Part shown: piece after piece, positions 1 through 22,084 of the stretch
How the letters are laid out: each line of letters starts with the position of its first letter
Position numbering within the stretch: the first letter of the stretch is position 1
NCBI GenBank assembly: GCA_902789425.1
Contig: CADANX010000012.1
Span: 1-32,000 of the forward strand
Source of the DNA: an uncultured Erysipelotrichaceae bacterium
GTDB lineage: Bacteria; Bacillota_I; Bacilli_A; RF39; UBA660
Direction of reading: 5' to 3'
Length of the DNA stretch: 32,000 nucleotides
Translations under genes and position numbers: made by a program
Notes under the pieces: model-generated
What the model saw: the letters and a program-made list of their open reading frames with translations, nothing else
Databases searched by the model: none
What the model was told of the DNA's origin: nothing

Positions 1-2
1 TT

Positions 3-362
3 GAAGAATACGCTAATTTATTTAATAAAGGAGCAATTAATAGATTTCAAGAAGTAAGTGCTAATGGAGAAAAAATACAAATGGAAGTATGTGCTCCTAT
101 GACTAGAGAAGAAGTTGAAAAACATATCAAAAGACTACAAGTTAAATACCCAATCGATTATCATGAAATAAAGAAAGAAAAATATAATGACCATCAATTT
201 TGTCTAAAATATACAAGAACAAATGTATTTAATGAACCACTTAAGATGATACCTTTAATTAATAAAAAAGGAATAAATAAAGTAGATAGTTATGGAGTAA
301 TAGAAGTTCCAGTACCACCTATAACTTATATTTACGCTGATAGTATAGAGGTAGAGCAATGA
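3..362 (+). CDS. Hypothetical protein, 5'-truncated by the window edge; translationally coupled to the relaxase gene
   Basis: Frame 3 is open from base 3 and continues in frame into ORF 81..362, so the true start is probably upstream of the window. The TGA stop (360-362) overlaps the relaxase ATG (359-361). No motif recognised. Confidence 0.4.
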   Translation, partial: EEYANLFNKGAINRFQEVSANGEKIQMEVCAPMTREEVEKHIKRLQVKYPIDYHEIKKEKYNDHQFCLKYTRTNVFNEPLKMIPLINKKGINKVDSYGVIEVPVPPITYIYADSIEVEQ

Positions 363-1615
363 GTTATGCAATATTTAGAAGTGAATCGATAAATACAATA
401 AAAGATTTAGGACAAATTGGTGCTCATAATAAACGAGATAAAAAAGCATATAAGTCTAATCCTGATATTGATATGTCTAAAACTAAAAATAATATAGAAA
501 TTGTTCCACTTTCTGATAAATACACTAAAGGTTATTATGAATTAGTTAAAGATTATAAAAAAGAATATGAAGAAAAACAAAAAACAACTCGTGAAGATCG
601 TAGAAAATCATTTGATAAAATGTTAGATGATTCAAATAGTGTTGTTGCTGATGAATTATTATTTACTAGTGATAATGATTTCTTTAAAAATATGAGTAAA
701 AAAGATATTAAAAAATGGGTTGATACTTGCATGGAGTTTGTTTATAAAGATTTAGGTTATACAAAAGAGCAAGTTTTACACGCAACAGTTCACATGGATG
801 AAAAAACACCACACTTACATTGTGTAGTTGTTCCTTTAATTAAGAAGTTTGATAAAAGAACAAATACAGAAAAATACACCATTTCTAAAAAGCATTATAT
901 GAAGTCTGGTGCTTATATTAGTGAACTTCAAGATAAGTATTGGAAAAGAATGAATGATAATGGCTTTAAATTAGAACGAGGTATTAAAAATAGTGATAAT
1001 GAACATATCTCTATTAAAGAATTTAAAAAGATAACAAAAAAACTAGATAATCGTATGGAAAAACAAAATTATCTAATGACTAGAGATTATGAAATATTAG
1101 AAGAAAAGTTAAAAACTTCTAAACCTACAATTACTGGCAAAGAAGTTAAAATTGATAAAGAAACTTATGATACTCTGCAAGACTTTATGAATACTTCAAA
1201 AAGAGTTATTAAAGATATGCCTAGTAATCAAGCATTATTTAAAGAACTTGAAGACTATACAAATAATTATCGTGAAATGGAAATACAAAAGCATAATGTA
1301 GAAGTTGAAGTTAGAAAATTGGAATACAAAAACGAAGAACTACAAAAAGAAAATAGAAGACTACATAATTTCTTAAATGTAATGCTCCAAACAATAAAAA
1401 AATTCTTCAATAAATTACTTCACATAGGAACTGAAAAAGATAAAGATGATGTAGTTAAAGAAATTACTTCATATCATCAACTAGATTATTATAATGATAG
1501 AGATTTACACGATATTGCCGATGGTACACCTAGAGAAGATGAAATAAATGATTATTTATATGAACAAAACTATGGTTATGATAAAGATTATGATGACCTT
1601 GATATAGACATATAA
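359..1615 (+). CDS. mob: MobV / Mob_Pre family plasmid mobilisation relaxase
   Basis: The N-terminus MSYAIFR... and the HxDExxPHxH metal-binding box in HATVHMDEKTPHLHCVVVPL are typical of pMV158 MobM-type relaxases. The C-terminal half is a long charged coiled-coil. Confidence 0.85.
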   Translation: MSYAIFRSESINTIKDLGQIGAHNKRDKKAYKSNPDIDMSKTKNNIEIVPLSDKYTKGYYELVKDYKKEYEEKQKTTREDRRKSFDKMLDDSNSVVADELLFTSDNDFFKNMSKKDIKKWVDTCMEFVYKDLGYTKEQVLHATVHMDEKTPHLHCVVVPLIKKFDKRTNTEKYTISKKHYMKSGAYISELQDKYWKRMNDNGFKLERGIKNSDNEHISIKEFKKITKKLDNRMEKQNYLMTRDYEILEEKLKTSKPTITGKEVKIDKETYDTLQDFMNTSKRVIKDMPSNQALFKELEDYTNNYREMEIQKHNVEVEVRKLEYKNEELQKENRRLHNFLNVMLQTIKKFFNKLLHIGTEKDKDDVVKEITSYHQLDYYNDRDLHDIADGTPREDEINDYLYEQNYGYDKDYDDLDIDI

Positions 1616-1618
1616 AAA

Positions 1619-1635
1619 GACGAGCAATGCTCGTC
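1619..1635 (+). terminator. Perfect 7-bp hairpin just after the mob stop (gacgagc-aat-gctcgtc)
   Basis: The inverted repeat was read directly. It has an A-run on the 5' side and no clear T-tract on the 3' side, so it is weak as a + strand intrinsic terminator. Confidence 0.35.
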
Positions 1636-1643
1636 ATAAGAAG

Positions 1644-1823
1644 ACTCTATTTCCAATAGAGTAACACACTTCTCTATTGGCAGAGCCAATAGGGTGTGTG
1701 CAAAGGAAATTTCCTTTTTGAAACCCCAAAACATAATTTGAAAGAACTAGTTGTTCAAGTAAAATTATGTTTTAAATTAATATTTTAATTTTTAAAACGT
1801 TGTAATTAAAATTAAAATATTAA
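1644..1823. repeat. Cluster of inverted repeats/hairpins between mob and the DGR target gene
   Basis: Five elements read directly. (1) 1644-1651/1655-1662, 8-bp stem. (2) 1665-1669 + 1674-1680 pairing with 1686-1692 + 1694-1698. (3) ggaaatttcc palindrome at 1705-1714. (4) 12-bp arms 1728-1739/1762-1773. (5) Perfect 16-bp arms 1777-1792/1808-1823. Confidence 0.6.
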
Positions 1824-1903
1824 TAATCTTTCACCAACAATATTGAAAAAATTATCTATTTAATATATAATATTTATATAAATAAGAATAGGATACAAAA
1901 AAT

Positions 1904-2728
1904 ATGAAAAAAATTATTGGTTCAAGATTATTTTCATTTTTATTAGGAGCCATAATATTTGGTGGAATTGGTGTAGCAAGTGCATACACTCTTTTAGCAT
2001 CCGATACATCTTTTACTCCTAAAGATACTAGTTGGAGTGTTGATAATGTAGAAGATGCATTAAATGATATTCATAGAATAATGAATACAACAGCATTTAA
2101 AAAAATATGTCATTATGTTAATAGTGATTACTCAAAAGATGCATCAGATAAATATAGTATAGGAACAAAATACGAATGTGATCCAGGAGATGGAGTAAAA
2201 AGGAACTTTTATGTGCTAAAAACTAGTGGAGAAAAAGTGGATTTAATAATGGAAGAAAATATAGCAAAAGGTACATTAACATGGTATAACGCAATGAAAT
2301 ATTTTACAGATGGTGCAGGAACTTCAATAAAATCTTCCTGGACAAATGTACAAGATATAGATTTACCAAAAGCACAAGATATAGCAAATGCTGTTGGTAG
2401 AAGTAGTTGGAAAGCAGCAGAAAACAGTACATGGTGGTGTTTAGAGAGTCATAAACAAGACTCTGGAAGTAGTCCATATTGTTATAATAATGATGGTAAT
2501 TTAGAAACATTATGGTTATGGGATTATTTAAGAGAATGTGCTAGTTGGAAATGTGAACATAGTTTAAACTCAGAATGGGCATATGGATATTGGACGAGAG
2601 ATGCAATAGTTAATACCGCGAATGCTTGGTATGTCGATAGGCATGGCGGTCTGGACTACGACACTGCATCGAATTCCACGCGCCGTGGGGTTCGCCCAGT
2701 TATAACGGTTTACCGTTCTAATCTCTAA
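1904..2728 (+). CDS. DGR target (variable) protein: N-terminal membrane anchor/signal, C-terminal DUF1566/C-type-lectin-fold-like variable domain
   Basis: Hydrophobic N-terminus LFSFLLGAIIFGGIGVASA. The C-terminus ...GYWTRDAIVNTANAWYVDRHGGLDYDTASNSTRRGVRPVITV resembles the WxxS...AWxV...G...VRPV ends of DUF1566-type DGR targets. VR occupies codons ~237-266 of 274. Confidence 0.85.
   Translation: MKKIIGSRLFSFLLGAIIFGGIGVASAYTLLASDTSFTPKDTSWSVDNVEDALNDIHRIMNTTAFKKICHYVNSDYSKDASDKYSIGTKYECDPGDGVKRNFYVLKTSGEKVDLIMEENIAKGTLTWYNAMKYFTDGAGTSIKSSWTNVQDIDLPKAQDIANAVGRSSWKAAENSTWWCLESHKQDSGSSPYCYNNDGNLETLWLWDYLRECASWKCEHSLNSEWAYGYWTRDAIVNTANAWYVDRHGGLDYDTASNSTRRGVRPVITVYRSNL
2614..2699 (+). repeat. 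DGR variable repeat (VR)
   Basis: 86 nt align without gaps to 4776..4861. The 12 mismatches are at 2630, 2636, 2642, 2648, 2649, 2654, 2657, 2660, 2681, 2682, 2684 and 2685, and each corresponds to an A in TR. The segment is a GC-rich island in AT-rich DNA. Confidence 0.92.
2704..2717 (+). other. Hairpin (aacgg-ttta-ccgtt) 5 nt downstream of the VR/TR homology end; candidate DGR cruciform/IMH-associated element
   Basis: 5-bp stem with a 4-nt loop, read directly. It is present only on the VR side; the TR flank at 4862 onward is unrelated. Confidence 0.5.
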
Positions 2729-2806
2729 TCTCTAGTGGGAGTATCAAAATATAAGCGTGAATATATGTAAAATAAAAGAATAGAGCATGAAAGAAAATAA
2801 AAAAAT

Positions 2807-2839
2807 ATTTTAGTGGGAAGTGAATCTTCCTACTAAAAT
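2807..2839 (+). other. Strong hairpin between the target gene and the MSL gene
   Basis: 14-bp stem 2807-2820/2826-2839 (one G.U) with loop tgaat. No T-tract follows, so it is not a classical terminator. Confidence 0.5.
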
Positions 2840-2861
2840 TGATTTAAAATAGGAGGAAGAA

Positions 2862-3281
2862 ATGTTATTTGATAAATATAAAAAATATAAAAATGAATAT
2901 AATGAATATATTATTTTTATTAAAAGTGGAAATTTTTATTTAACATTTAACAAAGATGCATACGTACTTCATAATGTTTTCTCTTATAAAATTAAAGAAA
3001 CAAAAAATGGATATAAATCAGGATTCCCTTTAAATGCTATTTCTAAAGTAGAAGATAAATTAAAAGAATTAAATATTAATTATATAATTATTCAAGAAGA
3101 TAATATAAAAAAGAAACAAGATTTTAAAAAGAATACTTATTTAAATTATGTAGTAATGAAAAATTATTCAATAATTTATAAAAGAATAGATATGATTAAT
3201 AATATCTTAAAAGAAAATATAGATAATAATATTGAAGATATTTTAAGTGAAATTGAAGGAGTATTATGCAAGATAAATTAA
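2862..3281 (+). CDS. MutS domain I-like small protein (MSL-type DGR accessory protein)
   Basis: Strong RBS aggagg. IIFIKSGNFYLTFNKDA...GFPLNAISKVEDKLKELNINYIIIQ parallels the MutS mismatch-binding domain (LFYRMGDFYELFYDDA...GIP...L...G..VAI.EQ). The 3' end overlaps the avd start. Confidence 0.65.
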   Translation: MLFDKYKKYKNEYNEYIIFIKSGNFYLTFNKDAYVLHNVFSYKIKETKNGYKSGFPLNAISKVEDKLKELNINYIIIQEDNIKKKQDFKKNTYLNYVVMKNYSIIYKRIDMINNILKENIDNNIEDILSEIEGVLCKIN

Positions 3282-3610
3282 TTATTGCCACTAAAACTAA
3301 GAAAACAATTGAATTAATTGAAAAGACAATTATTAATTTTCCCCATAAAGAAAGAAATTTAAAAAATAGACTTGCAAACACTTGCTATGATTTACTTGAA
3401 AATATATATTATGCTAATATCACAAAAGAAATTAACTCAATGAAAAAGATTATAGTTAATATTAAAATGATAGATTATTTTCTAAAATTAAGTTGTAACA
3501 GGGAATTGATCAGTTTAAAAAAATATGAGCAAATAGGTAATTATTTACTTGAAATAAATAAAATGGTTAACATATGGATTAAAAATGAAACGAGTAAACA
3601 AAATATATAA
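3266..3610 (+). CDS. avd: Accessory variability determinant (Avd; four-helix-bundle / 23S rRNA-IVS protein family)
   Basis: 114 aa, directly upstream of and overlapping the RT gene. FPHKERNLKNRLANTCYDLLENIYYAN fits the FPKxExxxLxxQxxRAxxSIxxNIAEG pattern of this family. RBS aaggag. Confidence 0.75.
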   Translation: MQDKLIIATKTKKTIELIEKTIINFPHKERNLKNRLANTCYDLLENIYYANITKEINSMKKIIVNIKMIDYFLKLSCNRELISLKKYEQIGNYLLEINKMVNIWIKNETSKQNI

Positions 3611-4694
3611 TGATATAACATCTTTAGAAAATATTATGAATATGTATGATACTAAAGTAAAACCAAACACAAAAAACAAAATAAAAATAGAAAAGTTTGA
3701 TGATTACTATACAGAAAATATAATGAGCATAAAAAATATTTTGGATAATAAGGTATATGATGGTGGTAAATATAACTTATTTGTCATTAAAGATCCTAAA
3801 GTAAGATTAATAATGAGTCAAAACATAGGTGATAAAATTATTAATCATTTGGTAAGTCATTATTTTTTAGTAAAATATTTTGATAAGAGTTTAATAAATG
3901 AAAATGTATCAACAAGAGTTGATAAAGGTCTTCATTATGGAATGAAATTGTTAAAAAAATATTTAAATGAATTAAAAGGGAATAGTTTTTATATTTTAAA
4001 ATTTGATATAAGTAAATATTTTTATAATTTAGATCATGATATTATTAAAAAATTAATTAGGAAAAAAATAAAAGATAAGGATGCACTTAATATATTGGAT
4101 AAGATAATTGATAGTACAGATAAAGATTATATAAATATCGAAATAGATAGATTGGAAAAATTGCATAAAGTTCAATTACCAAGATATAAAAAAGGTAAAG
4201 GACTACCTATAGGAAATATGTCTAGTCAAATACTTTCAATTATTTATTTAAATGAACTTGATCATTATATTAAAGAAGAATTACACATAAAGTATTATAT
4301 AAGATATTGTGATGATGGGATTTTAATCCATAACGATAAAGAATACTTAAAATATTGTTTAAAAGAAATAGAAAAAATTATTGATAAATATAAGTTAAAA
4401 TTAAATAATAAAACAAGTATAATTAATATTAATCAAGGATTTACTTTTTTAGGATATAGATATTATATAAGAAACAATAAAGTATATATGAATATTAAAA
4501 GCGATGTAAAAAGAAGAATTAAAAGAAGATTTAAGGGCTTAAAGAAAATGATAGAACAAGGATTAATAACCAAAGAATATTTTTTAAGTGTAGAAAATAG
4601 TTATAAATCACATATGAGTTACGGTAATTGTAATAGTTTCATCAAAAATGCGATAAATAAATATCATAATGATATATTTAATAATGAAGAATAA
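3585..4694 (+). CDS. DGR reverse transcriptase
   Basis: RT motifs present: LPIGNMSSQ (the DGR hallmark [ILV]GxxxSQ) and the YIRYCDDGILIH catalytic YxDD box. 369 aa with no maturase or endonuclease extension. Lies next to TR. Confidence 0.92.
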   Translation: MKRVNKIYNDITSLENIMNMYDTKVKPNTKNKIKIEKFDDYYTENIMSIKNILDNKVYDGGKYNLFVIKDPKVRLIMSQNIGDKIINHLVSHYFLVKYFDKSLINENVSTRVDKGLHYGMKLLKKYLNELKGNSFYILKFDISKYFYNLDHDIIKKLIRKKIKDKDALNILDKIIDSTDKDYINIEIDRLEKLHKVQLPRYKKGKGLPIGNMSSQILSIIYLNELDHYIKEELHIKYYIRYCDDGILIHNDKEYLKYCLKEIEKIIDKYKLKLNNKTSIININQGFTFLGYRYYIRNNKVYMNIKSDVKRRIKRRFKGLKKMIEQGLITKEYFLSVENSYKSHMSYGNCNSFIKNAINKYHNDIFNNEE

Positions 4695-4725
4695 TTGAAA
4701 AATTATATTAATATTGTGGTAAAAT
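4695..4725 (+). promoter_or_regulatory. Possible promoter for the TR-containing RNA
   Basis: ttgaaa (4695-4700) and an extended -10 tgg-taaaat (4717-4725). The spacer is 19 nt, which is long, so this is tentative. Confidence 0.3.
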
Positions 4726-4775
4726 TATTATGGTATATACTGAATGGTTTAGTTTTCTATGCGTCTAGGCTGTTT

Positions 4776-4861
4776 TACCGCGAATGCTTGGAATGTCAAT
4801 AGGAATGGCAATCTGAACAACAACACTGCATCGAATTCCACGAACAATGGGGTTCGCCCAG
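4776..4861 (+). repeat. DGR template repeat (TR)
   Basis: Invariant copy of VR with 28 adenines and 11 in-frame AAY codons (reads ...ANAWNVNRNGNLNNNTASNSTNNGVRP). All 12 VR differences are at TR adenines (4792, 4798, 4804, 4810, 4811, 4816, 4819, 4822, 4843, 4844, 4846, 4847). Confidence 0.92.
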
Positions 4862-5019
4862 ATTCCTTTAAAACTTTGTTTTATGTTACTATGGTATATA
4901 AAGAGAAGCTAAAGGAAACAAGTATATCCCACTCTAGAAATAGAGAAATAAATATCATAGATGATTTTAAGTGTTAGTAGTAATAATATGAAAATGATTA
5001 AAATCTATAGACTATGATC

Positions 5020-5063
5020 AAGAACTAATTTCTTATATTGTTGATTAGTTCTTTTCTTTTTTT
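5020..5063 (+). terminator. Rho-independent terminator closing the DGR cassette
   Basis: 10-bp arms aagaactaat (5020-5029) / attagttctt (5044-5053), followed by a T-rich run tttcttttttt. Confidence 0.75.
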
Positions 5064-5109
5064 ATAATTAAATATGATACTTTACTTAAAGTAATTTAAA
5101 TTAAGGTAT

Positions 5110-5138
5110 TTGACAAAAACAATTATTTTTGGTATTAT
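5110..5138 (+). promoter_or_regulatory. Sigma-A-type promoter (TTGACA - 17 nt - TATTAT)
   Basis: -35 ttgaca at 5110-5115, a 17-nt spacer, and -10 tattat at 5133-5138. The predicted start falls at about 5145, the first base of the GTGAGCAC box. Confidence 0.6.
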
Positions 5139-5144
5139 TTAATC

Positions 5145-5184
5145 GTGAGCACTGGAAAAGACTACGGTCTTCCAGTCTTTTTTT
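5145..5184 (+). ncRNA. Small RNA module 1: GTGAGCAC box + hairpin + U-tract (candidate Abi-associated RNA)
   Basis: gtgagcac at 5145-5152. Hairpin 5151-5176 with 7+3 bp, a 2-nt bulge and loop tacg. T-run at 5178-5184. Confidence 0.45.
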
Positions 5185-5241
5185 GTATATTTATAACATT
5201 TTTTACATATACTATCTATGTAGGAATATAATTTCCTACTA

Positions 5242-5277
5242 GTGAGCACACAAAAGATTATTCTTTTGTGTCTTTTT
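5242..5277 (+). ncRNA. Small RNA module 2: GTGAGCAC box + hairpin + U-tract
   Basis: gtgagcac at 5242-5249. Hairpin 5248-5271 with a 9-bp stem and loop attatt. T-run at 5273-5277. The flanks match module 1 but the stem sequence differs. A tataat at 5227-5232 lies just upstream. Confidence 0.45.
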
Positions 5278-5278
5278 C

Positions 5279-5287
5279 TGCTATAAT
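5279..5287 (+). promoter_or_regulatory. Extended -10 promoter element (TGcTATAAT) upstream of the abi gene
   Basis: tg at 5279-5280 and tataat at 5282-5287, 19 nt upstream of the ATG at 5306. Confidence 0.45.
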
Positions 5288-5305
5288 GGTTTTAGGGATG
5301 ATTAT

Positions 5306-6235
5306 ATGTCAGAAAAAACATTTTTAACTATTGATGAATTAATTGATAAAATAAAATCTAAAAATATTAGTATTAAAGATGAAAATGATGTTAGAAATAT
5401 TTTAGAAACTAATAATTATTATTTTATTATGGGTTATAAGTTTGCTTTTAAAAACATTGATGGAACTTATAAAGATAACACTTCTTTTGAAGATATATAT
5501 TCATTATATATTTTTGATAAGATGTTAAAATTAATTATTTTAGATCCTATACTTGAAATAGAACAAAAACTAAAAACAATATATACTAATAATTATAGTT
5601 ATAGATATGGCTTTAAAGTTAATGATATATTAGATCATAATAATTATGATTTATCAAATAATTATTTAAATGATACATTATCTAATTTAGATAAACAATT
5701 AAATGATTTTGGTAATAAAAATAAGGCTGTTATGTTTTATAGAAATAATCATTCATTTATTCCATTATGGGTATATATGAAGATATTATCATTTGGTATG
5801 ATTCGTGATATGTTTTATATATCAAAAAATAATGACAAAGATTACATGAAAAATAAACTAACTAATGAAAATATAAGTAGTAGCGAAGTAGCCAATATGC
5901 TAAGATTACTTGTTAGAGTTAGAAATATATGTTGTCATGATGATATTCTTTTATCATTTGTAGATGATAAGTTAGGTATTAAAACTACTAAATATCATAA
6001 TGAGTTTAAATTAAAGAAAGATATAAATGGTAATGTAATTCAAGGTAAAAAAGATTTGTTTGCTATTTTAATTGTTATTAAGTGTTTTTTAAACAAAGAC
6101 AAATTTACAATATTAATTAATAATTTAGTAATGTTAATCGAGGAATATGATAAGGAAATTGGCTCACTTAATAAAAAACAGTTATTATCAATAATGCATT
6201 TGCCAGAAAAAATTGAAAAATTAAAAGATTTATAG
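5306..6235 (+). CDS. Abi_2 family (AbiD/AbiF-like) abortive-infection protein, HEPN-type
   Basis: The N-terminal ...NYYFIMGYKFAFK..., the YIFDKMLKLIILDPILEIEQKLK block and LLVRVRNICCHDD (RNxxxH, codons 206-211, nt 5921-5938) follow the Abi_2 pattern. Confidence 0.8.
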   Translation: MSEKTFLTIDELIDKIKSKNISIKDENDVRNILETNNYYFIMGYKFAFKNIDGTYKDNTSFEDIYSLYIFDKMLKLIILDPILEIEQKLKTIYTNNYSYRYGFKVNDILDHNNYDLSNNYLNDTLSNLDKQLNDFGNKNKAVMFYRNNHSFIPLWVYMKILSFGMIRDMFYISKNNDKDYMKNKLTNENISSSEVANMLRLLVRVRNICCHDDILLSFVDDKLGIKTTKYHNEFKLKKDINGNVIQGKKDLFAILIVIKCFLNKDKFTILINNLVMLIEEYDKEIGSLNKKQLLSIMHLPEKIEKLKDL

Positions 6236-6329
6236 TGCATTTTATGTTAAAATTTGTTATAATTTATATAGAAATTAACCTAAATAAAAATTTCCAAACG
6301 TCTATAACTGACGCACCATATAAAAAATA

Positions 6330-14907: not shown

Positions 14908-17900
14908 ATGAAAGCTAAGTTAAATAAATTTAAAGACATCTTTATTAGTAACAATAAGAACACAATAATATCTATAATTGTTTTATTGTGTGTTTTTGCG
15001 TCTTTAACTTATTTTAGATATGCTGCTATTGCTAAAAATTATATTGCTGCTGAAGTTACTTTTAATAATCAAAATACTGGTTTAACATCAAATAATGTAC
15101 AAGATGCATTAGAAGAAATATATGCAAGATCAAATGGTGCAACAACATTTAATAAAAATTATGTTTTAATTCAATTTGAAACAGATGGTGGAACTGAAAT
15201 TCAATCACAATATGTTGCAAAAAATTCAGCAATTACAAAACCAACTAATCCAACAAAGGCAGGTAAAGGTTTTAAAGGGTGGAAAGATCAAAATAATAAT
15301 ACCTTTACAAATTTTGCAGGTGGAACTTCAACAAATTTAGTTTTAACAGCTGAATGGGGAAATTTATATACAGTAAACTTTTATAAAGTTCTTAGTAATA
15401 ATCAAACTGAGTTATATCAAACTAAAAGTGTAGTCTCAGGTGAAACAATATCTAATTTTCCTGGATCACCTGGAATAGTATCAGGGCAAAAATTTGTTGG
15501 TTGGGGTACAACAACTGCTTGTAGTACATTTTTTAATAGTACAGATACTGTAACTAAAAGTATGGATTTATATGCATGTTATACTGCTGAAACAATAACT
15601 ATTACATATGATGGTAATGGTGGAGGATGGACTCAAGGAGAAGATTTTTTAGCAGCCAAAGAAAGAACAGTTGCAAAAGGTGTAAAATTATCTCAATCAG
15701 GTAATATTCCTGAAAATCCATCAAAAGCTAATAGTGTATTTAAGTATTGGACTGAAACAGAAACTAATCAAAGTTCTCAAACTGATGCTTTACAAAATAG
15801 TTATAATGCTAATATAACTTTATATGCATATTATAAAAATTTATATACAGTAACTTTTGATTCAAATAGTGGTAGTTATGTAAGTTCAATATCCGTCGAA
15901 GATGGTAACAAATTTACAAAACCAACTAATCCTACAAGAAGTGGTTATAAATTTAAAGGATGGTATTCTAATTCAACTTTAACTACAGAGTATACTTTTG
16001 ATAATAATGGTAATTCATCATCTACTGTTACTTCTAATCTTAAATTATATGCAAAATGGACTAAAGTACATACAGTAACATTTGTAACAAATGGTGGTTC
16101 AACTGTTGAAAGTCAACTAGTCGAAGATGGAAATAAAGTAACTGAACCAACAACTACAAGAAAATATTATAATTTTGAAGGTTGGTATAGTAATATATAT
16201 ACTTCAGGAAATACTTATAATTTTAATAATTCTGTAACATCTGATTTAACTTTATATGCAAAGTGGTCTTATGATCAAAATTGTTTATTAAAGATAGTTT
16301 ATAAATTTGATGAATCAGGAATAGATAATCCAGATGGACTTAATTTTATTAAAGATAATCTTCAATTAGATATGACAAATGAAAATATGAAAAATTTATT
16401 TGCAACTCCATCTAAAACAAAAAATGATCATAATTATAATTTTGAAGGTTGGGCTTTATCTAGTGATGAGGATGAATTTGTAGGGAATATATATACAGCG
16501 GATCATCCTTATGATATAACAAGCTTATACAAGAATAATTCTTTAACCAAAAAAACATTATATCTATATGCTATATATAAAAGTGAACCAAGAACAGCAA
16601 GCTTTTATGGACAAGGTGCAACATCTGATAATCAAGAAAATATTACTAAATCTTGTTTTTCATATAATACAAGTCCTACATGTTTAGTGAGTATTCCTAG
16701 TTATTCATATAATTCATATAGTTTTGATGGATGGTCTTCTAGTGCTAATTCATTTGAAACTGTTGAATCAATGAAAAATAAAACGAGTATGTCAATAGGT
16801 TCTAATGTAAGTTATTATGCTGTATTTTCAACATCTATAGGAAAAACGTTCCATGCTAATAATAATTCTTTTGAAGGTGTTACTGCTGATACATCTACCG
16901 TTTCATGTACAATTTATAATATTCAATCATCTTGTGAAATAACAACACCAACAATTCAAGGTAATCAATATACACCTACTGTAATTGGTTATACTACAAA
17001 CCCTAAATTTACTTATGAAGAAGGTGCTGAAATACTAGGTTCAGGAATTAAAATAACTATTTCAACTAATGGCGGAGATTATTATGCGCAAACTAGTAAT
17101 GTTAGTCCTGAAACTAATACTTGGACAGCTACTTATAAAACAACTGATGGTATTGATAAAATAGGTGCTAATTCAGATTCTTGTATTATTCCTTATGTTT
17201 ATAATGGTGAATTAACTACTAATACATGTAGTATTACATTACCAAGTATTGAGTTACTAGAGGGTTATAGAAATCCAGTATGGAATGATGGAAGTAATAA
17301 TTATGCAGCTGAAAAGAAATATATATTAAGAAAAAATACTGATATTACTGCTACTTGTGCATTAAAGAGTTATAATATTTCATTTGTAACTAATGGTGGT
17401 AGTGCAGTTGAAGAAATGAAAGTTGATTTTAAAAAGAAAATTAAAGAACCTACTAAACCTGAAAGACTTGGCTATTACTTCTTAGGTTGGTTTAAAGATG
17501 AATCACTTGAAACACCTTGGGATTTTGAAAAAGATGTAGTTATGGGACATACAACATTGTATGCAAAATGGGAATTAATTTTCTATGTAATTACATTTGA
17601 TACAAATGGTGGTTCTACCGTGGATAAACAAGCACTTAATTATGGACAAAAAGTTGTTAAACCAGAAGATCCAGTTAAGATAGGATATAATTTTAAAGGC
17701 TGGTACACAGATCCAGATTTTACTAAGAAATATGATTTTAATACTGAAGTTAAATCTAATGTTAATTTATATGCAAAATGGTCTAAAGATGATGGATCAA
17801 CATTAGAAATTAAATCTAAAAATAAATCTGGTGGTTCTATAGTAGTATCAAAAAATGATGATGTTACAAGTAAGATTGCTATTTATGAAGATAATGAAGT

Positions 17901-18699
17901 AACTGGTGCAGAACTAGATAGTATTAAAAATAATTATTTTCAAATAGCAGAAGGAATATATGTAATTGATACTAAAGTAAAAGATAAAGATGGAAATGAA
18001 CTTAATGTTTCAAGTAGATACTTAACTTATAAGATTCCTGTTCCAAAAGGAATGAGTAAATATGATAACATAATGCTTTATCAAATGATTGATACAAGTG
18101 TAACTGAATTATTCTATACAATAGAAAAGAATAATATAGTATTTACTGCTCAAGGTACTGGAAGATATGTAGTTGTTAAATATGCTAAGAATGAAATATT
18201 AGATAGTAAGAATAACGAAAATGCAATAAATGTTAATAGTAGGCTTGCTGAAATAATAAAAGATTTTTATGTTTCAGAAGTTGTAGGTACAGAAAAAAGT
18301 ACAATAGTTAGAAAATTATTTGATTCAGCAGACAATGTATTTATATTTGATACAATAATACTTGATTCAAATGGTGATGAAGTAGAAACAGGAAATGAAA
18401 AAATTACATTTATTGTTAAATTACCAGATGATTTTGATGAAGATAATTTAAAACTATATCAAATTGTTGATGGAGAAAAAATTGAAGTTGATTTTGATGT
18501 TGTCAATGGTAAATTAATGTTTATTTCTAACAGTGCCGGAAGATTTGCATTAGCAGTAAATGAAGATTCAGAAGATGAAGAAACAGAAACATCTGGTAGT
18601 AAGGCACCACTATTTATTGGTCTTGGTGTTGTATTATTAGCAGCAGGTGCTACTGGTGGATTTATGTACTTTAAAAAGAAAAAAAATAATACTATGTAA
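14908..18699 (+). CDS. Large surface protein with multiple Listeria-Bacteroides (Flg_new/InlB B-repeat) repeats and N- and C-terminal hydrophobic anchors
   Basis: Repeated ~70-aa units of the form Y.V.F..NGGS.V......G.K...P..P.+.GY.F.GWY........F......L.LYAKW. C-terminus PLFIGLGVVLLAAGATGGFMYFKKKK. Confidence 0.8.
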   Translation: MKAKLNKFKDIFISNNKNTIISIIVLLCVFASLTYFRYAAIAKNYIAAEVTFNNQNTGLTSNNVQDALEEIYARSNGATTFNKNYVLIQFETDGGTEIQSQYVAKNSAITKPTNPTKAGKGFKGWKDQNNNTFTNFAGGTSTNLVLTAEWGNLYTVNFYKVLSNNQTELYQTKSVVSGETISNFPGSPGIVSGQKFVGWGTTTACSTFFNSTDTVTKSMDLYACYTAETITITYDGNGGGWTQGEDFLAAKERTVAKGVKLSQSGNIPENPSKANSVFKYWTETETNQSSQTDALQNSYNANITLYAYYKNLYTVTFDSNSGSYVSSISVEDGNKFTKPTNPTRSGYKFKGWYSNSTLTTEYTFDNNGNSSSTVTSNLKLYAKWTKVHTVTFVTNGGSTVESQLVEDGNKVTEPTTTRKYYNFEGWYSNIYTSGNTYNFNNSVTSDLTLYAKWSYDQNCLLKIVYKFDESGIDNPDGLNFIKDNLQLDMTNENMKNLFATPSKTKNDHNYNFEGWALSSDEDEFVGNIYTADHPYDITSLYKNNSLTKKTLYLYAIYKSEPRTASFYGQGATSDNQENITKSCFSYNTSPTCLVSIPSYSYNSYSFDGWSSSANSFETVESMKNKTSMSIGSNVSYYAVFSTSIGKTFHANNNSFEGVTADTSTVSCTIYNIQSSCEITTPTIQGNQYTPTVIGYTTNPKFTYEEGAEILGSGIKITISTNGGDYYAQTSNVSPETNTWTATYKTTDGIDKIGANSDSCIIPYVYNGELTTNTCSITLPSIELLEGYRNPVWNDGSNNYAAEKKYILRKNTDITATCALKSYNISFVTNGGSAVEEMKVDFKKKIKEPTKPERLGYYFLGWFKDESLETPWDFEKDVVMGHTTLYAKWELIFYVITFDTNGGSTVDKQALNYGQKVVKPEDPVKIGYNFKGWYTDPDFTKKYDFNTEVKSNVNLYAKWSKDDGSTLEIKSKNKSGGSIVVSKNDDVTSKIAIYEDNEVTGAELDSIKNNYFQIAEGIYVIDTKVKDKDGNELNVSSRYLTYKIPVPKGMSKYDNIMLYQMIDTSVTELFYTIEKNNIVFTAQGTGRYVVVKYAKNEILDSKNNENAINVNSRLAEIIKDFYVSEVVGTEKSTIVRKLFDSADNVFIFDTIILDSNGDEVETGNEKITFIVKLPDDFDEDNLKLYQIVDGEKIEVDFDVVNGKLMFISNSAGRFALAVNEDSEDEETETSGSKAPLFIGLGVVLLAAGATGGFMYFKKKKNNTM

Positions 18700-19406: not shown

Positions 19407-20601
19407 ATGATAGATATTAATGTAATAAGAGAAAATAGAGATTTAGTTAAAGAAAATATTAAAAAGAAATTTCAAGATAAAAAATTAGTTTTAGTTGATG
19501 AAGTATATGAAATGGATATAAAACTAAGAAAAATTAAAGTAGAAGTTGAAGAACTTAGATCAAAAGTAAATTCATTAAGTAAAGAAATTGGTTCTTTAAT
19601 GAGAGATGGTAAAAAAGAAGATGCTGAAAAAATAAAAGAAGAAGTTAATAAATATAAAGAAAAGATTCCAATGCTTTCAGAAGAAGAGTCTGCTTTAGAA
19701 GATGAAATAAGATCAAGAATGCTATTAATTCCTAATTTTATAGCACCTGATTGTCCTATTGGTGAAGATGATTCAAAAAATGTTGAGATAGAAAAAATTG
19801 GAGAACCAGTTATTCCAAAATATGAAATTCCATATCATGCTGATATAATGGCAAGTTTTAATGGTATAGATAAAGAAGCTGCTGGTAAAGTTGCAGGTAA
19901 TGGGTTTTATTATTTAATGGGTGATATTGCAAGACTTCATAGTGCTGTTTTATCATATGCTAGAGATTTTATGATAGATAAAGGGTTCACTTATTGTATT
20001 CCTCCATATATGATAAGAAGTGATGCTGTAGATGGAGTTATGTCTTTTGAAGAAAAAGAAGCTATGATGTATAAAATTGAAAATGAAGATTTATACTTAA
20101 TAGGAACATCAGAACATTCTATGATTGCTAAATTTAAAAATCAAATACTTGATAAAAATGAATTACCTATAACTATGACTTCATATTCACCATGTTTTAG
20201 AAAAGAAGTAGGTGCTCAAAATGCTTAACTATACTGTAGAATTATTTAGAAGTCTAGATATTCCAGTAAGAAAACTTGTATGTTGTTCAGGTGACCTTGC
20301 TGATTTAAAATATAGATCATGTGATGTCGAAGCATTTTCACCAAGACAAAATGACTATTTTGAGGTAGGTTCTTGTTCTAATCTAACTGATGCACAAGCA
20401 AGAAGACTTGCTATAAGATATAAAGATGAAAATGGTAATAAAGTACTTGCACATACTTTAAATAATACAGTTATAACACCACCAAGAATGCTTATTGCTT
20501 TTCTTGAAAATAACTATAATGAAGATGGATCAATTAATATTCCAGTTGCTTTAAGACCATATATGGGTGGTAAAGAAAAACTTATACCAAATAATAAATA
20601 G
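19407..20601 (+). pseudogene. serS: Seryl-tRNA synthetase, disrupted (two frames: 19407..20228 and 20212..20601; class II motif 2 missing)
   Basis: The first ORF ends ...SYSPCFRKEVGAQNA*, just at the start of motif 2. The second ORF, in the +1 frame, resumes at ...MLNYTVELFRSLDIPVRKL.CCSGDL... and carries motif 3 (LNNTVITPPRMLIAFLEN). The RvHQFxKvE segment is absent. Confidence 0.65.
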
Positions 20602-20686: not shown

Positions 20687-22084
20687 ATGAACGAGATTAT
20701 TTCAAAGATAATTAATAATCTAAAAGAAGGCGAAATTTTAGAGGATATAAATGTAAATAAGTGTGATGCAAAAGTAATAAATTATCCAAAAAATAAAAAA
20801 ACAAAACCTGTATTATTAAAGAAAGGATTAGTAGCTGGAGTACTAGGCTTATCAATAGCACTAGGAGCACCAGCAGTTTTACCTGTTGAACCAACAAAAG
20901 TAGAAGCTGCAAAAGATAAGAAAAAACCTAAATTAACAATGAAAGGTAAATCTAGATTATATGAAAATGCTGGTAATACTATTAAATTAGGTAAAGTAAC
21001 AGCAAAGGATAATGTAGATGGTAATATTACTAAAAAGATATCTGTAACTGTTAAAAAGAATAAAAAAAGTTTTAAATCAATTGCAAAAAAGATTAAAAGT
21101 AATAAATCTTTTAAAATTACAGAAGAAGGAACATATGTTATAACTTATACTGTAAAGGATAAAGCAGGAAATAAAACAACAAAAACAAGATATTTAACAA
21201 TTATGAATTTAAATAATAAACAAGAGAAAACAACAGAAGCTCCAACAACACAAAAACAAAGTACAACTCAAGCAACTAAAACTTCTGTAACTACAGAAAA
21301 AACAACACAAGCACCATCAACAACACAAGAAAAAACAACAGAAGAAAAAACAACAGAAGAAAAAACAACAGAAGAAAAAACTACTGAAAATAAAACTAGT
21401 GAAACAACTACTGAAAATAAAACTACAGAATATAACACAACTGAAAATAAAACTTCTGAAAAAACAACAGAAGAAAAAACTACACAACAAACTACTACTG
21501 AAACTCTTACAACAGAGGATATTCATGAAGATCCAAATATTATTCCAACTGATTTTTCTAAATATAATATTAAAACAACAACAATTAATGGTAAAACATA
21601 TAAAGTAACTAGTGATGAAGATTTCTATAATGAAGTTATTTTAGAAAAAGGTTTATATGATACAAATATGACAATTGATGTAGAAAATGATTATAATTCA
21701 TTTATGATGGAATTAAATAATCCATGTTTAGATAACAATAATTACATAAAATATTTAGGAAATATAAAAGTAACTGATAGAAATGGAAAAGATATAACTG
21801 ACAGAATTATAATTTGTGATTATAAGTTACGTTCTAAAGAATGGAAAGTTGGTAAAACTTATTCTGTTAAATTTTACATTGAAGATGAAAAAGGCTATTA
21901 TAATGTTAAAACGTTTAATATTGATTTTACTGATGAATCTACAAAAGAATATTATGAAAGAAATCATTTAAACTATCAATGTGTTGATGAGATAAATAAT
22001 GTGTTTGGTCACGTAAGAGGTACAAATATTAATCTTTCAAAATCTGAGGATAGAGATAAAGTTAAAAAGCTAGTTTTAGCATAA
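20687..22084 (+). CDS. Secreted or membrane-anchored protein with an Ig-like (DUF5011-type) domain and a Thr/Glu/Lys repeat linker
   Basis: Hydrophobic segment LVAGVLGLSIALGAPAVL. KPKLTMKG...AKDNVDGNITKKISV...EGTYVITYTVKDKAGNKTTKTRYLTI resembles DUF5011/HYR-like Ig domains. Confidence 0.65.
   Translation: MNEIISKIINNLKEGEILEDINVNKCDAKVINYPKNKKTKPVLLKKGLVAGVLGLSIALGAPAVLPVEPTKVEAAKDKKKPKLTMKGKSRLYENAGNTIKLGKVTAKDNVDGNITKKISVTVKKNKKSFKSIAKKIKSNKSFKITEEGTYVITYTVKDKAGNKTTKTRYLTIMNLNNKQEKTTEAPTTQKQSTTQATKTSVTTEKTTQAPSTTQEKTTEEKTTEEKTTEEKTTENKTSETTTENKTTEYNTTENKTSEKTTEEKTTQQTTTETLTTEDIHEDPNIIPTDFSKYNIKTTTINGKTYKVTSDEDFYNEVILEKGLYDTNMTIDVENDYNSFMMELNNPCLDNNNYIKYLGNIKVTDRNGKDITDRIIICDYKLRSKEWKVGKTYSVKFYIEDEKGYYNVKTFNIDFTDESTKEYYERNHLNYQCVDEINNVFGHVRGTNINLSKSEDRDKVKKLVLA
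21326..21484 (+). repeat. In-frame tandem 15-nt (with two 12-nt) repeats encoding E-x-K-T-T pentapeptides
   Basis: gaagaaaaaacaaca units at 21341, 21356 and 21371, plus diverged copies through 21484. Coding low-complexity sequence, not a CRISPR array. Confidence 0.85.

Follow-up and report, generated by a model that had tools for sequence, protein, structure and literature searches.

A DGR Locus Encoding a MutS Domain I-Like Protein in Which the Stacking Phenylalanine Is Kept and the Mismatch-Specific Glutamate Is Lost

Results

Organization of the DGR Locus

The DNA analyzed here (the window, meaning the whole stretch of 32,000 nt) carries a DGR whose features are listed in Table 1. A preliminary description of this DNA had placed a 139-aa ORF with similarity to MutS between the target gene and avd, and both the ORF list and the annotation of the neighboring genes showed the ORF to be present exactly so. 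Codons 25–27 of this MutS-like (MSL) gene (nt 2934–2942) read TTT TAT TTA, or F-Y-L. The stop of MSL overlaps the start of avd by 16 nt and the end of avd overlaps the start of the RT gene by 26 nt; the three genes are therefore translationally coupled. The avd product was also compared with the NCBIfam model DivGenRetAVD, which it matched with E = 1.5e-15 and a score of 57.3 bits, under the curated cutoff of 80.

Table 1. Features of the DGR and of the MSL gene, in window coordinates.
Feature	Position	Strand	Basis or remark
Promoter-like site upstream of the DGR unit	1843–1871		Consensus scan only; promoter count not above chance
DGR target (variable protein) gene, 274 aa	1904..2728	+	ORF; VR at 3' end
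VR, 86 nt	2614..2699	+	86% identity to TR; 12/12 differences at TR adenines
Ribosome-binding site AGGAGG	2851..2856	+	5 nt 5' of the MSL ATG; direct reading
MSL gene, 139 aa	2862..3281	+	ORF, Pfam MutS_I, AF2 model, Foldseek
G-N-F-Y-L, MSL codons 23–27	2928..2942	+	Counterpart of MutS G-D-F-Y-E; HMMER alignments
N-x-Y motif, MSL codons 91–93	3132..3140	+	Start of helical tail, outside the MutS_I match
avd, 114 aa	3266..3610	+	Pfam bAvd E = 2.9e-12; PHROG "Avd protein of DGR"
DGR RT gene, 369 aa	3585..4694	+	RVT_1 E = 1.1e-17; phrog_1423 E = 3.9e-85; IGNMSSQ and YCDD motifs
TR, 86 nt, 28 adenines	4776..4861	+	Repeat comparison
Terminator-like hairpin, end of the target-MSL-avd-RT-TR unit	5248..5271	+	Consensus scan only

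The DGR is real and active in nature. It has the arrangement target–MSL–avd–RT–TR, its RT carries the motifs given in Table 1, and the differences between VR and TR follow the adenines. Across seven loci, three VR haplotypes were found, with 12, 14 and 17 differences from the TR, and 43 of these 43 differences fall at TR adenines. The TR itself was identical in 7/7 related loci where both repeats could be examined, and an identical MSL protein was found on 22 contigs. Two copies of the cassette that lie in different chromosomal contexts differ at nine positions within ≈50 nt of the VR, compared to six in the other ≈6 kb and none in MSL. The VR haplotypes, together with the concentration of differences in the VR between these copies, therefore show natural activity of this MSL-bearing DGR.

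A small island carries the cassette; its other components are a serine recombinase, a Mob_Pre relaxase and AbiD. At least two chromosomal sites have received the island, and its right junction lies near window position 6242. Six ORFs of the island (the Mob_Pre relaxase, the DGR genes and Abi_2) were scanned for HRDC, with no match. No mutS or mutL was seen among the annotated ORFs of the 32-kb window, which are a subset of its ORFs. The host is a bacterium from gut metagenomes with ≈23% GC, and its relatives are labelled "Bacilli bacterium".

Homology and Predicted Fold of the MSL Protein

The preliminary description had recognized a likeness to MutS domain I by eye, and had proposed an HMM search against PF01624 and a structure prediction as checks. 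Both gave significant matches, and a family profile agreed with them. Pfam MutS_I matched residues 3–66 of MSL with E = 6.8e-8 and 33.2 bits, relative to a gathering cutoff of 20.6. The single MSL sequence matched PDB sequences weakly (Taq MutS, E = 0.2). A profile built from 104 MSL sequences matched Taq MutS with E = 1.9e-5, E. coli MutS with E = 1.8e-3 and MSH6 with E = 8e-3; 26 of the 27 PDB matches of this profile at E ≤ 1 were MutS-family chains, the remaining one being a marginal match to Clp (E = 0.32). In the HMMER alignments, GNFYLTF of MSL stands opposite GDFYECF of Taq MutS and GDFYELF of E. coli MutS, which pairs MSL Phe25 with Phe36 and Leu27 with Glu38 in the E. coli numbering. 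The Phe-X-Glu contact motif of MutS is not intact in MSL: Phe25 is present, and Leu27 occupies the Glu position. The earlier reading of codons 25–27 as a motif that keeps the Phe and has lost the Glu was thus borne out by the sequence and by the alignments.

An AlphaFold2 (AF2) model of MSL, made with the 104-sequence alignment, had a mean pLDDT of 94.1 and a pTM of 0.75. (An earlier run on only six sequences, with a pLDDT of 62.6, was superseded by this one.) When the model was compared with the PDB in Foldseek, the best 50 matches were to MutS or MSH3 domain I throughout, with a best E of 8.9e-6 and a probability of 1.00 for the match to MutS domain I. The rmsd was ≈1–3 Å over 72–96 columns in the better-fitting chains, and up to ≈7 Å elsewhere. 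MSH3 domain I gave the closest superpositions, with an rmsd of 1.0–1.3 Å over 72–86 columns. According to the model, approximately the first 86 residues (1–86) form a MutS-like α/β domain, and residues 87–139 form an MSL-specific tail with predicted helices (residues 93–138) that have no counterpart in MutS. A kinship between this helical tail and the helical bundle of Avd was considered and rejected, as hhalign gave it a probability below 1%.

The protein has a pI of 9.0 as a whole; its N-terminal domain, at pI 9.3, is basic, in keeping with a binder of nucleic acids, and the tail has a pI of 6.3. MutS_I was the sole MutS-family domain in the Pfam scan, which detected no further Pfam domain in MSL and found none of the MutS connector, core/lever, clamp and ABC ATPase domains (MutS_II to MutS_V). 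Since the protein ends at residue 139, it is too short to include an ATPase or a clamp, and the claim of the preliminary description that both are absent holds. The full-length MutS models of NCBIfam scored only 14–17 bits on MSL, against cutoffs of 480–642. In public annotation, proteins of the MSL family are sometimes labelled "DNA mismatch repair ATPase MutS", although the ATPase is absent.

Conservation Within the MSL Family

An exhaustive profile search returned 1,425 representative clusters at E ≤ 1e-3; at the stricter E ≤ 1e-10 the number was 383. Family members are mostly 130–146 aa long and match over their full length, including the tail. Conservation was computed from 156 family sequences aligned to the profile, 121 of them near-full-length. 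Near-fixed positions in the MutS-like domain include G23 (99%), F25 (99%, or 147/149), Y26 (90%), D32 (91%) and Y42 (94%), as well as G54-F55-P56 (95–97%). Others are near-fixed and have no MutS equivalent, namely N91 (94%), Y93 (91%) and E132 (85%). Altogether, the strongly conserved features of MSL that are absent from MutS are K10, Y13, Y42, N91, Y93, E132 and the tail.

The position of the MutS glutamate behaves quite differently from the frozen motif in which it lies. At position 27 the entropy reaches 3.25 bits, one of the highest values along the protein, and the residue is Glu in 46 sequences (31%), Ile in 25, Asn in 14, Leu in 13, His in 11, Val in eight and Thr in five. Sixteen residue types, Arg and Lys included, occur there among the 121 near-full-length members. 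The nearest neighbor of a sequence has the same residue at this position in 52 of 121 cases, compared to 48–53 for control variable columns. We considered that the Glu might have been lost in a single clade-specific event, and rejected this, as the column acts like other variable columns. The presence of Glu followed no consistent pattern with gene order or with type of fusion, both classes of each being mixed. Position 27 is not neutral everywhere, because ≈31% of the sequences keep the Glu, some subclades consistently. The subclade to which the present protein belongs mostly has Leu, and its close relatives read F-Y-L, F-Y-I and F-Y-E. Across the whole family, then, the Phe is mandatory and the Glu is one option among several, and the loss of Glu is not peculiar to the protein described here.

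Linkage to DGRs, Fusions and a Branch Outside DGRs

Gene neighborhoods were obtained by exact-protein look-up with precomputed Pfam annotation, and from fetched loci that were probed with the RT and Avd of the window. Co-occurrence with DGR RTs, another check proposed in the preliminary description, was found: 21 of 27 informative loci or proteins were DGR-linked (19 distinct loci and two fusion proteins). Left out of the 27 were P0126 and L041, which gave no call either way, and L044, a genuine full-length MutS.

The order MSL–avd–RT was found at the present locus and in P0006, L009, L030, L038 and L040. In P0087, MSL is followed by avd, and the RT is matched only in part, at the end of the contig and on the other strand. 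The order avd–RT–MSL or RT–MSL was found in P0004, P0141, L010, L031, L032, L033, L034, L036 and L043. One DGR, L035, has MSL at both positions; the two copies are divergent paralogues, one with the Glu and one without. Gene order varies among close relatives, with L038 and L040 arranged one way and L031–L034 the other. Since the order differs even within one subclade, it is the linkage that is conserved and not the synteny. Fusions are rare: RT::MSL fusions occur in P0054 (a contig present in two samples) and P0131, and fusion proteins with MSL::Avd architecture were identified by Pfam in P0084 and P0127. P0148 combines MSL with a GreA C-terminal domain, and may be a gene-call artefact.

Six cases were not DGR-linked (P0102, L037, L039, L042, P0079 and P0116). 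P0102, which is flanked by transposases, is probably a remnant, and L037, L039 and L042 are three related, truncated MSL copies. P0079 and P0116 have a distinct architecture of 296–299 aa and represent a related branch outside DGR loci; in P0116, neither RT nor Avd was found within the 5-kb flank on either side. The preliminary description had named frequent occurrence outside DGR loci as a result that would speak against its reading. The form of ≈140 aa is not common outside these loci, where only the related branch is represented.

Several other searches were made. A genome scan with the 6-sequence alignment gave only three loci, and a viral scan with the same MSL alignment found nothing. 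One of the three loci, L011 (Streptobacillus), was dropped, as phmmer did not confirm it as MSL. There was no match to MSL by tblastn in annotated phage and plasmid collections, and the family is absent from PHROGs and PADLOC.

Relation to the Published MSL Class and to MutS

The MSL accessory class that the preliminary description had named was defined by Wu et al. in 2017, who found it in 16 of 372 DGRs as proteins of 112–283 aa, in "Architecture D" (PMC5758913). In that survey MSL always occurred with avd and never with HRDC, three RTs had a C-terminal MutS_I motif (an observation independent of the fusions reported here), and the authors speculated that mismatch repair (MMR) might be involved in some DGRs (PMC5758913). 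The protein described here has 139 aa, within the published range, is homologous to MutS domain I and adjoins avd, and no HRDC was found with it. We conclude, with high confidence, that the gene encodes an MSL accessory protein of the DGR, made up of MutS domain I and a family-specific C-terminal helical hairpin, and translated together with Avd and the RT from frames that overlap. The family collected here, which was compared with the class of Wu et al. by way of its published description, very probably is that class, because 21 of the 27 informative cases are DGR-linked. Proteins of Legionella and Bacteroides are among the 16 founding members.

As in the published class, including Msl of Bacteroides, the present protein is a small stand-alone homologue of MutS domain I in a cassette with avd on a mobile carrier. 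It is more basic, with its pI of 9.0 compared to a published mean of 7.2 ± 1.7. Its carrier differs as well: the DGRs Bfr, Bth and Bun of Bacteroides, which carry Msl, reside on ICEs (10.1101/2024.11.15.621889), whereas the serine-recombinase/Mob_Pre island found here is neither an ICE nor a phage. The host, a very AT-rich uncultured gut bacterium of Bacilli type, is also different from those of the published MSL.

MSL has the same fold as domain I of MutS and MSH6 (PF01624; E. coli residues 2–115, 1E3M; Taq, 1EWQ) and retains its G-x-F-Y hairpin with the stacking Phe, its D-A motif and its G-[IF]-P motif. MutS also has connector, core, clamp, ATPase and HTH domains, none of which are present in MSL, where the remainder of MutS gives way to a helical tail of 50 residues in which an N-x-Y motif is conserved. 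DNA binding by MutS depends on Phe36, and Glu38 makes a hydrogen bond to the mismatched base and is part of the relay to the ATPase; the mutation E38Q abolishes discrimination between mismatch and homoduplex (PMC3848065). [quoted passage not shown] Domain I of MSH2 and MSH3 thus resembles the present MSL in the absence of the mismatch-specific Glu. However, MSH2 and MSH3 lack the whole motif, while MSL keeps the Phe, and they are full-length, heterodimeric ATPases, which MSL is not. The paralogue pair of L035, one copy with Glu and one without, hints at an asymmetric pair resembling MSH6/MSH2.

Discussion

The preliminary description had stated that MSL has no known biochemical function, and our literature search likewise found no published function and no paper in which one was tested. 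Recent work on Bacteroides nevertheless provides a context. When mutS was deleted in the host of an Msl-less DGR, VR mutagenesis rose 5–10-fold with an unchanged spectrum, which led to the conclusion that heteroduplexes are reversed in an all-or-nothing manner (10.1101/2024.11.15.621889). The same study found that the constitutively active DGRs Bov and Bfi have no Msl and that the Msl-bearing ones are tightly regulated and quiescent; the quiescence correlated with weak transcription of avd, TR and rt, and not with Msl (10.1101/2024.11.15.621889). Engineers have added a dominant-negative MutL to obtain DGR activity in E. coli, and cited MutS-like homologues in their rationale.

We tentatively propose, as a quite possible reading that falls somewhat short of probable, that MSL is tethered to RT–Avd, wedges its Phe into the heteroduplex and shields it from host MutS. 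MSL would travel with the RT–Avd–cDNA complex and would insert its invariant Phe into the distorted, mismatch-dense duplex in which the adenine-mutagenised cDNA is paired with the VR of the target, a duplex that at the present locus would contain 12–17 mismatches in 86 bp. Having no connector, clamp or ATPase, MSL would not form a sliding clamp and would not recruit MutL. While on the site, it would locally block host MutS, and more retrohoming events would escape all-or-nothing reversal. A tethered binder without an ATPase would not need the Glu, whose roles are in discrimination and ATPase signaling, which would explain why this position drifts freely while G-x-F-Y stays fixed.

The pattern of conserved and variable residues suggests a grip on DNA without the triggering of repair. 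A selective reason for such a shield exists, as deletion of mutS raises DGR mutagenesis. This suppression by MutS, together with the conservation pattern, indirectly supports the speculation of the preliminary description that A:N heteroduplexes could be shielded from host repair or marked. The linkage to RT and Avd in both gene orders, the translational coupling, the basic N-terminal domain and the activity of the element also fit the proposed shield. Tethering to the complex is only suggested by the RT::MSL and MSL::Avd fusions. Several points weigh on the other side. MSL without the Glu may not be mismatch-specific on its own; as E38Q loses discrimination, specificity in Glu-less MSL would have to come from tethering. 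Most of the DNA affinity of MutS comes from its clamp domains, and domain I by itself may have little affinity for DNA. The invariant Phe could also be kept for folding, and the retention of the Glu in ≈31% of members, consistently so in some subclades, speaks against a position that is free of selection throughout. That most DGRs, very active ones included, lack MSL (16 of 372 carry it) counts against a shield, and the related 296–299-aa branch outside DGR loci complicates it.

MSL might instead be a subunit of the RT–Avd–TR RNA particle that serves in cDNA synthesis or hand-off and does not act against MMR, which we consider rather unlikely. The Phe wedge would then grip the mispaired hybrid of RNA and cDNA, or the mismatched end of a primer, and as a result the RT would extend past adenine misincorporations, or the cDNA would be delivered to the target. 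The fusions place MSL physically on the synthesis machinery, the translational coupling of MSL, avd and RT and the constant company of Avd (never HRDC) in the 2017 survey (PMC5758913) point the same way, and the lost discrimination by Glu is easier to accept if the particle, and not scanning, defines the substrate. However, the RT–Avd of the Bordetella phage and the Bacteroides DGRs Bov and Bfi carry out adenine mutagenesis without MSL, and a part in synthesis seems unnecessary when MSL-less DGRs are functional. MutS domain I, moreover, contacts B-form DNA from the minor groove, and is not known to bind an A-form RNA:DNA hybrid. More doubtful still is a structural or regulatory subunit without mismatch activity, in which the MutS-I fold now serves as a scaffold for binding protein or RNA, for instance in the control of DGR activity, and G-x-F-Y is kept only to build the β-hairpin. 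The dispensability of the hallmark Glu, the existence of a branch outside DGRs, and the conserved tail with K10, Y13, Y42, N91, Y93 and E132, which point to interactions specific to MSL, all fit such a scaffold, as does the tight regulation and quiescence of the Msl-bearing DGRs of Bacteroides (10.1101/2024.11.15.621889). That quiescence, however, followed low transcription of avd, TR and rt rather than Msl; the near-invariance of Phe beside the freely varying positions 24, 27 and 28 suits a functional contact better than a hairpin scaffold, and the basic N-terminal domain also argues against a scaffold.

The homology of MSL to an MMR sensor, and the speculation of Wu et al. on MMR in some DGRs (PMC5758913), could be taken to mean that MSL recruits or redirects host MMR, with the heteroduplex being resolved toward the cDNA strand and the new sequence thereby placed on both strands. 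This is very improbable: MSL consists of domain I alone and is missing the parts of MutS that communicate with MutL and the ATPase, the residue that is not conserved is the very one that couples mismatch binding to the authorization of repair, and the effect of host MutS on DGR mutagenesis is inhibition, not promotion (10.1101/2024.11.15.621889).

In its fullest form, the shielding model would make MSL a natural anti-mismatch-repair factor encoded by a retroelement, a MutS derivative stripped of its signaling parts and carried by RT–Avd to the duplex of cDNA and target, where it would cap mismatches and blind host MutS locally; put this strongly, we regard it as possible but doubtful. MutL E32K, the dominant-negative form employed for retron and DGR recombineering, is a functional analogy only, in that MMR is suppressed so that RT-derived heteroduplexes survive. 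It is an engineered poison of MMR with a global effect, exerted at the level of MutL; MSL occurs naturally, is encoded by the element and would, if the model is right, act locally at the MutS step.

The protein described here adds one member to a class that was already published, and as such would not surprise a DGR specialist. What is added is the family-wide pattern of a fixed Phe beside a free Glu position, the conserved positions and helical tail specific to MSL, the MSL::Avd fusions, the divergent paralogue pair of L035, and the branch of the family outside DGRs. Among DGR accessory proteins, MSL alone is obviously connected with the step at which the cDNA heteroduplex survives or is lost, and the recent demonstration that host MutS reverts most DGR events (10.1101/2024.11.15.621889) makes the question of its role timely. 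The residue pattern and the fusions lead to a falsifiable prediction, namely that MSL enhances retrohoming in a manner dependent on F25 and on mutS. If true, a mobile element would here, for the first time, encode a decoy made from MutS itself, and MSL would be a small, portable aid to targeted mutagenesis by DGRs and retrons that does not put the whole cell into a mutator state, offering genome engineering a compact and locally acting alternative to dominant-negative MutL.

The DGR lies on a probable mobile island

The DGR is carried as cargo on an island of ≈8 kb, part of which occupies positions 1–6242 of the window, with its left end lying beyond the window. The island comprises a 91-aa ORF, a serine recombinase, a Mob_Pre relaxase, the DGR and an AbiD/Abi_2 gene, and its right junction falls immediately past the Abi_2 stop codon. 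It is inserted in two or more distinct chromosomal contexts. The island looks like an integrative mobilisable element with the DGR and an abortive-infection gene as joint cargo.

Within the DGR, a pair of hairpins lies after the VR. Hairpin 1 begins 5 nt past the VR end, the place of the target-site hairpin or cruciform elements of DGRs, as in the Bordetella phage DGR. The region folded better than all 200 shuffled sequences (z = −3.9).

Outside the island, the large surface protein of 1263 aa at 14908–18699 matched Listeria-Bacteroides repeat (Flg_new) domains in five stretches (E = 1.1e-93), and it is followed at 20687–22084 by one carrying a bacterial surface Ig-like domain. Both are host surface proteins with no relation to the DGR target. 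A frameshift breaks the seryl-tRNA synthetase frame (19407–20601) into ORFs 19407..20228 and 20212..20601, which overlap and are read in different frames; it would reflect an assembly error, a pseudogene or a programmed event.

Coordinates of island, hairpin and MSL-family features
Feature	Sequence	Position	Description
Island	L001 and L002	3208-11381	
91-aa ORF			island gene
Serine recombinase	window	81..362	599 aa; 3' end of gene
Mob_Pre relaxase	window	359..1615	island gene
AbiD/Abi_2	window	5306..6235	island gene
Hairpin 1	window	2704-2717	5-bp stem, 4-nt loop, AACGG-TTTA-CCGTT
Hairpin 2	window	2807-2839	strong 14-bp stem, in target-MSL gap
MSL-related segments	L035 (Ga0256404_1008591)	3-230, 1238-1738, 3303-3758	
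P0116	L023	5001-5891	
P0079	L020	232-1131	
P0126	L026	186-977	

The MSL family within and outside DGRs

One related locus, L035, contains two divergent paralogues of the MutS-like accessory protein (MSL) within a single DGR. The copy upstream of avd has the motif G-T-F-F-E, in which the Glu is present, and the copy downstream of the RT has G-N-F-Y-I, in which it is absent. The N-terminal part of the avd-upstream MSL is also present as a duplicated fragment. Such an arrangement might point to an asymmetric pair or to a recombinant cassette.

There is also a branch of the family outside DGRs, represented by P0116 and P0079. P0079 and P0116 (296–299 aa) have an MSL-like N-terminal domain with the motif G-x-F-Y-[TQ]-x-R-N-E-S-A and share a conserved C-terminal part of ≈185 aa that had no matches in Pfam. 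Neither an RT nor Avd was present within 5 kb of P0116. P0126, grouped with these two, contains two MSL-like domains in tandem.

Stand-alone MutS-domain-I proteins of 74–153 aa were also matched in BFVD (A0A8S5PPT8, A0A8S5PL02, A0A8S5L9N2 and A0A1V0SJ64), from predicted phage proteomes and one giant virus, Klosneuvirus, whose protein has 135 aa.

Public names for family proteins of ≈100–140 aa, among them P0006, P0215 and P0191, include “MutS domain I protein”, “hypothetical protein” and, for some, “DNA mismatch repair ATPase MutS”. The proteins given this last name have no ATPase domain, making it an annotation trap for inventories of mismatch repair genes in metagenomes.
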